Position numbers and translations under genes: made by a program. DNA of 64,000 nt from a phage, in assembly GCA_017864995.1 (NCBI GenBank), contig GCA_017864995.1_4097.1. One strand, written 5' to 3'. Position 1 is the first letter of the stretch. The number at the start of each line of letters is the position of its first letter. Positions 13,398 through 13,533 of this stretch are shown in pieces. Below the pieces are notes generated by a model. The model saw only the letters and a program-made list of their open reading frames with translations. It did not search any database and was not told where the DNA came from.

Positions 13398-13533
13398 GTA
13401 TTCAGTACTGAATCACTAGGGGAGGTTGTGATTCCCGATTCAGTAGCTTATAAAGCAGTTCCGTGTGTGCCTATACATTACAACTAGTGCACATTTAAAA
13501 CCTAGACGTAGGATGTAAGTATTCAGTACTGAA
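13398..13533. repeat. non-coding element bounded by two copies of the palindrome ATTCAGTACTGAAT
   Basis: gtattcagtactgaat at about 13397 and 13518, about 120 bp apart, no ORF between. Confidence 0.4.

Follow-up and report, generated by a model that had tools for sequence, protein, structure and literature searches.

Between two copies of a 14-bp palindrome, a jumbo coliphage genome carries an interior that sequence comparison strongly supports as a conserved structured RNA, kept through compensatory changes between two phage genera. We call this candidate structured non-coding RNA (ncRNA) module A. It occupies positions 13396 to 13538 on the plus strand and was delineated by a covariance model and compensatory pairs. 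The best explanation we can offer, at a probability of roughly 0.5, has two parts. Module A would be a stable ncRNA with a pseudoknot, and pairing between the palindromes would clamp its ends or allow them to be processed. The palindromes would, in addition, be recognised as sequence by the factor behind a genome-wide excess of their core hexamer, AGTACT.

Our window is the whole 64,000-nt stretch of DNA that was analysed. Escherichia phage Ecwhy_1 matches the region at 99.7% identity, and close relatives include 121Q, PBECO4, phAPEC6, G17 and further jumbo myoviruses of the genus Asteriusvirus, about 350 kb in size. The setting is an early-type region with short plus-strand ORFs, six tRNA genes and about 30 sigma-70-like promoters. 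Both palindromes fall within a 300-nt stretch (13381–13680) of this Asteriusvirus (121Q/PBECO4-type) jumbo coliphage that an earlier, sequence-only reading had described as ORF-free. That description holds: there is no plus-strand ORF of at least 30 aa in 13381–13563, and the stretch is overlapped only by one TTG-start ORF on the minus strand and one GTG-start ORF on the plus strand, both of which we deemed spurious; 1-nt indels among relatives would break them. The stretch is GC-richer, as claimed, but modestly so (0.40 versus 0.35). It was also placed just upstream of the tRNA-Thr pair; upstream is right but "just" is loose, since the tRNAs start 440 bp downstream, past two small ORFs and a 12/12 match to a sigma-70-type promoter (TTGACA-16-TATAAT, 13655–13682, plus strand) that would serve those small ORFs and the tRNA-Thr pair.

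The 300-nt stretch is 93–99.7% identical across 37 Asteriusvirus records. In an alignment of 13 Asteriusvirus sequences, conservation extends from about 13386 as far as the −35 hexamer at 13660; the promoter forms the right-hand edge of the conserved block, and the cross-phage alignment diverges past the −35. The flanks are mosaic in the same 13 phages: the upstream gene is replaced in JNE01 and Turkey5, and the downstream sequence is replaced in A4, 121Q, PBECO4 and SD-1. Module A and a second candidate RNA that follows it, module B, are 93–100% identical in all 13, while the flanking ORFs are swapped or just 75–99% identical. Over 25 kb beyond the block, identity to the PBECO4/121Q group is only about 84%.

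The predicted fold of module A, all on the plus strand, consists of helices P1 (13399–13413 with 13521–13535), P2 (13419–13423 with 13432–13436), P3 (13446–13449 with 13453–13456), P4 (13466–13473 with 13485–13487 and 13489–13493), P5 (13494–13497 with 13516–13519) and P6 (13501–13504 with 13509–13512). Compensatory pairs make up three of five in P2, six of eight in P4 and two of four in P6. A kissing helix would join the P2 loop (GUUGUG, 13425–13430) to the P4 loop (UACAAC, 13479–13484); in the Klebsiella phages the P4-loop half is CGCAAC, facing GUUGCG. We spotted this helix by eye. All six of its pairs hold in 13 sequences, two of them compensatory, and because it is absent from model R1, which was used for aligning, its support is independent of the alignment model. 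We regard it as the strongest single item of comparative evidence for a folded interior. Between P2 and P3, the unpaired GATTCAGT (13437–13444) equals the left half of the palindrome and is conserved in both genera, although about half of the Asteriusvirus sequences have GAATCAGT instead. An alternative helix between GAUUCAGU (13437–13444) and the 3′ half of palindrome copy 1 was rejected, being broken and uncompensated in about half of the phages.

Comparison at the sequence level establishes module A as homologous across two genera. A covariance model built from Asteriusvirus sequences alone scored the Klebsiella-phage modules (n = 3) at 56–74 bits over their full length, and nhmmer joined the modules of the two groups, again over the full length, at E values of 1e-9 to 1e-12. 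In the model-derived alignment, 98% of cells were paired and 13 of 46 pairs, the two in the kissing helix included, were compensatory, a covariation that is essentially between two lineages and in which the alignment of the nested helices, the kissing helix excepted, is fitted to the model. None of 500 shuffles matched this pairing, and controls with slid partners were 27–48% paired. By itself, the 107-nt interior is no more stable than shuffled sequence (z of +0.25 and +0.17). We assigned the fold to the plus strand because it includes several G-U pairs. Of the possibilities raised by the sequence-only reading, the structured RNA is thus strongly supported: its predicted stems and kissing-loop pseudoknot have survived the divergence of two genera by compensatory change.

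Module A occurs once in the window and once in 50 kb of RaK2, and it is present in every relative that we examined. Rfam 15 gave no match over 13381–13660 (E ≤ 10 on a 701-nt scan; E ≤ 1 on 7 kb), ARAGORN found no tRNA or tmRNA in the module A stretch, and no promoter for module A was found. The segment TAGACG...AATCAC, considered as a decayed promoter, is a poor match and is unconserved in the Klebsiella phages, and a T4-late-type ATAAAT upstream of copy 1 is unconserved in A4, 121Q and OU509535. We infer the transcription of module A and its RNA ends. No full-length homolog was found in 15–25 kb pieces of Mimasvirus and Eneladusvirus genomes; searches of pieces of GAP32, CBB, XbC2, fHe-Yen9-04 and PA5oct returned short hairpin matches only, with no module A match in the 15 kb of PA5oct.

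The two palindromes are exact copies of ATTCAGTACTGAAT, at 13400–13413 and 13521–13534, neither being assigned to a strand. They had been reported as about 120 bp apart at 13398–13533; they are indeed there, with coordinates shifted by about 2 bases and a start-to-start distance of 121 bp. GT precedes both copies, and copy 2 with its flanks forms a 16-bp palindrome, TATTCAGTACTGAATA. The window holds no third exact copy, where base composition predicts about 0.0008 copies, and it holds 15 matches with at most two mismatches, versus 0.68 expected from shuffles. Palindrome length alone is unremarkable: three palindromes of at least 14 bp were seen, and with 184 AGTACT cores that extend at a rate of about 0.3 per step, about 1–1.5 are expected. 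What does exceed background is that the copies are identical, that both lie in one intergenic stretch, and that both are kept across Asteriusvirus and the Klebsiella phages.

All 16 sequences (13 from Asteriusvirus and three from Klebsiella phages) have the same copy 1. Copy 2 is kept with one mismatch in the three Klebsiella phages RaK2, OU509535 and phiKp_21, where it reads ATTCTGTACTGAAT (A-to-T at position 5), and it reads ATTCAGTTCTGAAT in SHEFM2K and phAPEC6 (A-to-T at the centre). Neither variant is compensated in copy 1, and both break the palindrome as well as the P1 helix. RaK2 belongs to a different genus and has almost no nucleotide similarity to the window phage. Its tRNA region nonetheless carries GTATTCAGTACTGAATCA, 107 diverged bases and then ATTCTGTACTGAATAGCAGAAGGGCT, with a spacing of again 121 bp. 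Other copies of the 14-mer in 121Q and RaK2 are at gene ends and at one 5′ UTR-like position.

Metagenomic searches did not widen this sample. An IMG/VR scan with the bare 14-mer gave mostly chance matches, the informative ones being 121Q and RaK2 only, and a scan for two palindromes separated by 95–120 nt retrieved only the same two phages. A metagenome scan anchored on ACTGAATAGCNGAAGGNCT yielded 54 matches, of which one was a real module (L145) and the others were unrelated, so that it added no diversity for covariation in P1.

With T13399 and A13535 added, the two copies form the 5′ and 3′ arms of P1, a 15-bp closing helix that is predicted in each genus by the minimum free energy fold and is also part of the RNAalifold consensus. 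This pairing has no independent support because any palindrome's two copies are complementary by construction. Compensatory pairs number 0 of 15 in P1 versus 13 of 31 in the interior (hypergeometric p ~0.002). Since no P1 pair is compensatory and the variants of copy 2 are uncompensated, the arms appear to be constrained as sequence beyond what a helix needs. As a candidate RNase III stalk, P1 is a predicted long-range duplex of only 15 bp, which is short for a classical RNase III site, where the duplex spans about two helical turns. No U-tract follows copy 2 (AGCTGAAGGACT), whereas in an intrinsic terminator the stem is directly followed by one. Formation of P1 in vivo and processing at it are both putative.

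AGTACT occurs 184 times in the 64 kb, against 20.4 ± 4.7 in shuffled sequences (about 9-fold). It is the sole enriched 6-bp palindrome in the window, from which 25 of the 64 possible 6-bp palindromes, all containing G+C, are absent. Longer forms are also in excess, with 37 copies of CAGTACTG versus 1.0 expected and 10 of TCAGTACTGA versus 0.1 expected. To the left of the core T, T, C is preferred and to its right G, A, A; the pair at 13400 and 13521 are the best-consensus copies of the motif. Sites are spread evenly (8–17 per 4 kb), at 2.6 per kb in coding and 4.2 per kb in non-coding DNA, and they occur in all three reading frames (69, 24 and 46); about two thirds of the palindromes of at least 10 bp sit in ORFs. 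Spacing showed a weak trend toward regularity (CV 0.81–0.93) that was significant only in RaK2 (P = 0.006).

An origin of the excess in dipeptide or codon usage was ruled out by synonymous-codon shuffling, after which coding sequence held 35 ± 4.9 copies rather than the observed 139 (a fourfold difference). The dipeptide Ser-Thr is spelled AGT-ACT 69 of 143 times, versus 20.9 expected. Biased repair of the very-short-patch type was also rejected, as the neighbouring words AGTATT and AATACT are not depleted (ratios 1.0–1.4). When the window was compared with 121Q (82% identity over 23 kb), 42 of 63 AGTACT sites were intact (67%), versus 40% of all hexamers; the 21 losses were matched by 21 gains, leaving the density unchanged.

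The excess is 9–14-fold in seven genome pieces from four genera, and density is 2.8–3.4 per kb in Asteriusvirus, Alcyoneusvirus, Mimasvirus (including a Xanthomonas phage) and Eneladusvirus. Individual values per kb are 2.86 in RaK2 (12.9-fold), 3.22 in GAP32, 3.40 in CBB, 3.27 in Xanthomonas phage XbC2 and 3.20 in Yersinia phage fHe-Yen9-04, while 15 kb of PA5oct contains zero copies. From the excess, the occurrence in all frames, the conservation above background and the clade-wide density, it follows that AGTACT is a selected, clade-wide iterated palindrome. It is unmentioned in the literature that we searched on RaK2, GAP32, 121Q, PBECO4 and jumbo phages, and a full-text search for CAGTACTG returned primer sequences only. 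The genome papers on RaK2, CBB, fEgEco12 and Sharanji cover promoters, methyltransferases or restriction digests and describe neither the AGTACT motif nor these RNAs.

Elsewhere in the window, by predicted folding, AGTACT-bearing arms demonstrably serve as RNA stems. The arrangement GCCAGTAC-loop-GTACTGGC followed by a T-run occurs in several intergenic cassettes of the minus-strand gene block. In one case, the sites at 15390 and 15425 form a 12-bp stem with one U-G pair that runs into the U-tract CCUCCUUUUGU, and the first arm contains the stop codon of the upstream ORF. Beyond such terminators, neighbouring AGTACT pairs have no general tendency to extend into long helices.

In our preferred reading, the early tRNA-rich region would contain a plus-strand gene for a compact pseudoknotted ncRNA of about 110–143 nt. 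In the transcript, the palindromes would pair as the 15-bp P1 and so join the 5′ and 3′ ends, and P1, as a closing or processing stem, could free the RNA from a polycistronic early transcript and stabilise it. The clade's iterated palindrome, (T)TCAGTACTGA(A), has its strongest copies in this neighbourhood in these two sites, which are held constant as sequence. Because of this constancy, they are probably also read sequence-specifically, most simply by a phage-encoded factor.

The sequence-only reading had also proposed paired operators. As a DNA-level explanation, a dimeric phage or host protein would bind both palindromes, and perhaps an internal half-site, and so repress or activate small-RNA genes such as that of module B, with the structured RNA a separate matter. 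We consider this possible, though we would not expect it to be the right answer. Its appeal depends in part on what lies to the right of copy 2. Directly after that copy, AATAGCwGAAGGrCT is conserved across the genera and is followed in both by a −10-like hexamer. The centre of copy 2 is 27–28 bp upstream of this hexamer, TACAAT, which is itself a putative promoter element, so that copy 2 would overlap the −35/−40 region of the module B promoter. That promoter was read from the sequence as an extended −10-like element, TGGTACAAT (13552–13560, plus strand); it is invariant in 13 phages, and our −35/−10 consensus scan missed it.

Module B is a candidate small RNA of about 90 nt (13561–13652, plus strand) proposed from a predicted fold and covariation. 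It would comprise a 7-bp closing stem (13561–13567 with 13610–13616), a hairpin with a UUCG-type loop (13568–13574 with 13580–13587), a terminator-like hairpin (13618–13626 with 13631–13639) and a T-run (13648–13652). Among five distinct sequences, 96.5% of cells were paired, with two compensatory pairs and two wobble-to-Watson-Crick changes. The terminator would be non-canonical because the T-run begins 8 nt past the stem, and the terminator scan found none. We found no module B homolog in 50 kb of RaK2.

Operators would also explain why the palindromes are conserved as sequence without covariation, as expected for sites with a specific reader, and perfect palindromes of 14–16 bp are of a size typical for helix-turn-helix dimers. 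In addition, of the window's sigma-70-like promoters, about 31 in number, 8 have CAGTACTG directly next to the −10 hexamer, and the spacing in RaK2 stays at 121 bp despite module indels of −2, +1 and +1. Against this, five of the 13 Asteriusvirus sequences have a spacing of 120, and the core of copy 2 is mutated in two lineages. The AGTACT core is not confined to regulatory DNA; 144 of the 184 copies are in coding sequence, evenly spread at about 3 per kb, and the motif forms the arms of terminator-like hairpins elsewhere in the window. We found no candidate regulator.

A bolder extension, which we put forward tentatively and think rather unlikely, is that a clade-specific genome-marking system encoded by the phage uses AGTACT as its recognition word and that the 14-mers are high-affinity entry sites coupling this system to the pseudoknotted RNA. 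The system could be, for example, a methyltransferase and a reader used for strand discrimination, repair, replication or packaging, with selection holding about one AGTACT per 330 bp on every RaK2-like genome. The analogue would be GATC with Dam, MutH and SeqA. DNA methyltransferases are encoded by the clade (PMC11895373, PMC3622015).

The palindromes could instead be by-products, AGTACT sites made by a genome-wide force and conserved along with the block, with no role of their own. Background enrichment of AGTACT had been named beforehand as what would undo the case for the pair, and the enrichment is real and very large. It predicts about 1–1.5 palindromes of at least 14 bp where three are seen, the flank preferences T, T, C at −3 to −1 make TTCAGTACTGAA the commonest long form, and complementarity of at least 12 bp between nearby AGTACT sites is just about twofold over random pairs. 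We still think this improbable, since enrichment does not explain an identical, conserved pair. The copies match even in their GT flank and are kept across two genera whose interiors have heavily diverged, whereas AGTACT sites on average turn over, 21 of 63 having gone between the window and 121Q. Copy 1 has not changed in any of the 16 sequences, and in both genera the copies are exactly at the ends of the structured domain.

We find it very improbable that the palindromes are the boundaries of a cassette or mobile element, as recombination sites or terminal repeats of a PeSL- or MITE-like unit. Mosaic flanks around a constant block would fit, terminal palindromes are at once a direct and an inverted repeat, and the window has PeSL-like repeated promoter/terminator cassettes (PMC2839356, PMC4122927). 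But there is one copy per genome and no empty site among the relatives examined, the mosaic breakpoints (about 13386, and the −35 near 13660) are outside the palindromes, and the interior is constrained as RNA structure.

That these are sites for SlmA, the nucleoid-occlusion factor of E. coli, with which the phage would load SlmA and block host cell division, has next to no chance. The clade's hosts are mostly Enterobacterales, and the SlmA site GTGAGTACTCAC is, like the phage motif, a 12-bp palindrome with an AGTACT core. But SlmA requires G1, T2, a purine at position 3, A4 and G5 in each half (PMC3020112). In the phage motif, position 1 is T, position 3 is C, and G is the rarest base at −1 (22 of 184); GTRAGYRCTYAC sites number zero in the window, and enrichment is equal in a Xanthomonas phage. 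SlmA was therefore largely ruled out as the palindrome reader on its flank requirements.

With good comparative support, module A adds a candidate new family of structured RNA, with a kissing-loop fold, to the almost unexplored ncRNAs of jumbo phages. In these genomes, the module stretch is either unannotated or called as hypothetical proteins. The AGTACT excess is an apparently unreported signature: in all RaK2-like genera sampled, nucleotide-level selection keeps a single hexamer palindrome at about 3 per kb, and these genomes lack nearly all 6-bp palindromes that contain G+C. AGTACT is the ScaI site, and its density could be a simple diagnostic of the phage clade in metagenomes. The excess is also a viral counterpart of the HIP1 problem, and a phage of about 350 kb offers far fewer candidate readers than a cyanobacterium does. 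Should the genome-marking idea prove true, viruses would have a HIP1-like phenomenon of their own, and its reader would be tractable.

Several known systems resemble parts of what we describe. As in the lac, gal, ara and lambda operators, two identical palindromes lie about 11 helical turns apart near a promoter-like element; unlike them, this pair has a core that coding DNA carries about 3 times per kb and a spacing that can be either 120 or 121, and the sites are candidates only. Closing and processing stems offer a second comparison. The stalks of rRNA operons are cut by RNase III, and 6S and Y RNAs have closing stems. In these, as in P1, the sequences on the 5′ and 3′ sides of a folded domain pair with each other at long range, but P1 is predicted only, has just 15 bp and shows no covariation, and each of its arms is itself palindromic. 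PeSL cassettes of T4-type phages are promoter/terminator modules that recur between genes in hyperplastic early regions, with small ORFs on either side, and the window has such cassettes (PMC2839356, PMC4122927). Module A differs from them in being a single-copy RNA fold with no promoter-terminator pair, and its mosaic breakpoints are off the palindromes.

HIP1 (GCGATCGC) of cyanobacteria is, like AGTACT, a short palindrome over-represented within and between genes and conserved above background (PMC5861425, PMC4390886). The words differ, AGTACT extending to CAGTACTG or TCAGTACTGA, and so do the bearers, a cellular phylum for HIP1 and a phage clade for AGTACT, with excesses of 15–300-fold and 9–14-fold, respectively. 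A further difference is that AGTACT contributes arms to RNA stems and is found in the spacers of promoters. For module A itself, the nearest counterparts are found in other large phages. Species 1 and 2 of T4 are small stable RNAs of a phage tRNA cluster. In jumbo phage PA5oct, ncRNAs have been defined by RNA-seq (PMC7318152). Like module A, these RNAs are encoded among the early or tRNA genes of large myoviruses and are presumably excised from longer transcripts. They have no relation to it in sequence or structure, and the predicted kissing-loop fold and the palindromic clamps are module A's own.

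The density of AGTACT, the core of the two identical 14-bp palindromes at 13400-13413 and 13521-13534, was 2.8-3.4 per kb in all RaK2-like genera sampled, which is 9-14 times expectation. Counts were made over the whole window and in genome pieces of phages 121Q, RaK2, GAP32, CBB, XbC2 and fHe-Yen9-04. PA5oct had no copy in 15 kb. The sites are conserved above background, and their density is constant despite site turnover. The excess lies at the nucleotide level. We found no report in the literature of an AGTACT excess in RaK2-like phages. Beside it stands extreme avoidance of restriction sites: 25 of the 64 six-base palindromes, each containing G+C, are missing from the whole window, where approximately 2-6 copies of each are expected, and GATC, with 92 copies in the window, is about 2-fold under-represented.

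Several AGTACT copies form the arms of potential RNA stems. A hairpin cassette read on the minus strand is repeated between genes, ahead of minus-strand genes, at 54360, 56977, 58258, 59481, 60745, 61972 and 63224. Its hairpin, GCCAGTAC-loop-GTACTGGC with a T-run, is followed by TTAAATATAGTATAATG, AAAGGAGG and the ATG. Each arm of the stem is a copy of AGTACT, in degenerate form at 54360 and 56977. A related hairpin occurs at 51195. At 15386-15470, ATTCAGTACTGAAA, which overlaps the stop codon of ORF 15117-15401, can pair with TCGGTACTGAATT 35 nt downstream; the resulting 12-bp stem includes a single U-G pair and precedes CCUCCUUUUGU. A rival 11-bp hairpin in the same interval, ATAGCTTCTAG...CTAGAAGCTAT, holds the second arm (TCGGTACTGAATT) in its loop. 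The RaK2 piece has two copies of CAGTACTG, at its positions 10604 and 10639, also 35 nt apart. Besides the two 14-bp palindromes, a second long-range complementary pair with AGTACT-bearing arms, at 48704-48838, has 15 bp when G-T pairing is permitted. Its arms are 123 nt apart; one belongs to an intergenic, promoter-like site, and its partner falls within ORF 48744-49082. This pair may be due to chance, since about three such pairs are expected.

Paralogous tandem ORFs of 54-56 aa that start with MTHEEWM or MTHKEWL lie on the plus strand at 8748-8918 and 10252-10738, the latter comprising three in a row (10252-10416, 10413-10577 and 10574-10738) with 4-base overlaps between neighbors. The longest palindrome in the window, TTCTTCAGTACTGAAGAA (18 bp, 9095-9112), falls within ORF 8860-9141 and encodes FFSTEE. 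The C-terminal motif EEMEHL was seen again in RaK2, where it ends the ORF that immediately precedes the homolog of module A, our candidate structured non-coding RNA at 13396-13538 (+).

That homolog lies in a stretch of about 900 nt without annotated genes (5690-6600 of the RaK2 piece), which also carries a third palindrome-plus-promoter-like site (6039), an ORF of 35 aa whose end (...FQY-stop) is within CAGTACTGA, and several units made up of a hairpin and a T-run. The stretch likely encodes several further small RNAs. In the window itself, a seventh tRNA-like sequence (10149-10227, +), directly 3' of tRNA-Ser, scored 32.6 bits with Rfam's tRNA model, whose gathering score is 29, and was not picked up by ARAGORN or default Rfam filters. 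At 11480-11870 (+), a consensus promoter, TTGACT...CAGTACTGATATAAT (11480-11508), precedes an ORF-poor stretch of about 360 nt that closes with a hairpin and T-run near 11825-11858; this candidate long non-coding RNA had no match in Rfam.

The promoter at 11480 belongs to a sigma-70-like sub-family (also 10748, 11169, 12239, 28429, 32740 and 43608) in which (C/T)AGTACTG directly abuts the -10 hexamer. Four members share the whole spacer TTGACTAAATAGTTCAGTACTG, and the one at 12239 stands before tRNA-Ser. The phage RpoD-like sigma factor (25066-26031, +) has only 59% protein identity to that of 121Q and PBECO4 and 39% to that of RaK2. For the non-coding modules at 13.4-13.65 kb, identity to 121Q and PBECO4 is 94-100%. 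A separate plus-strand cassette, aaaGGGTTGACTTCGGTCAGCCCTTTTTGCTATAAT, is repeated at 34519, 38113, 41156, 45780 and 47848, with a terminator-like G+C-rich hairpin and T-run overlapping the -35 of a consensus promoter. These cassettes resemble the PeSL cassettes of T4-type phages.
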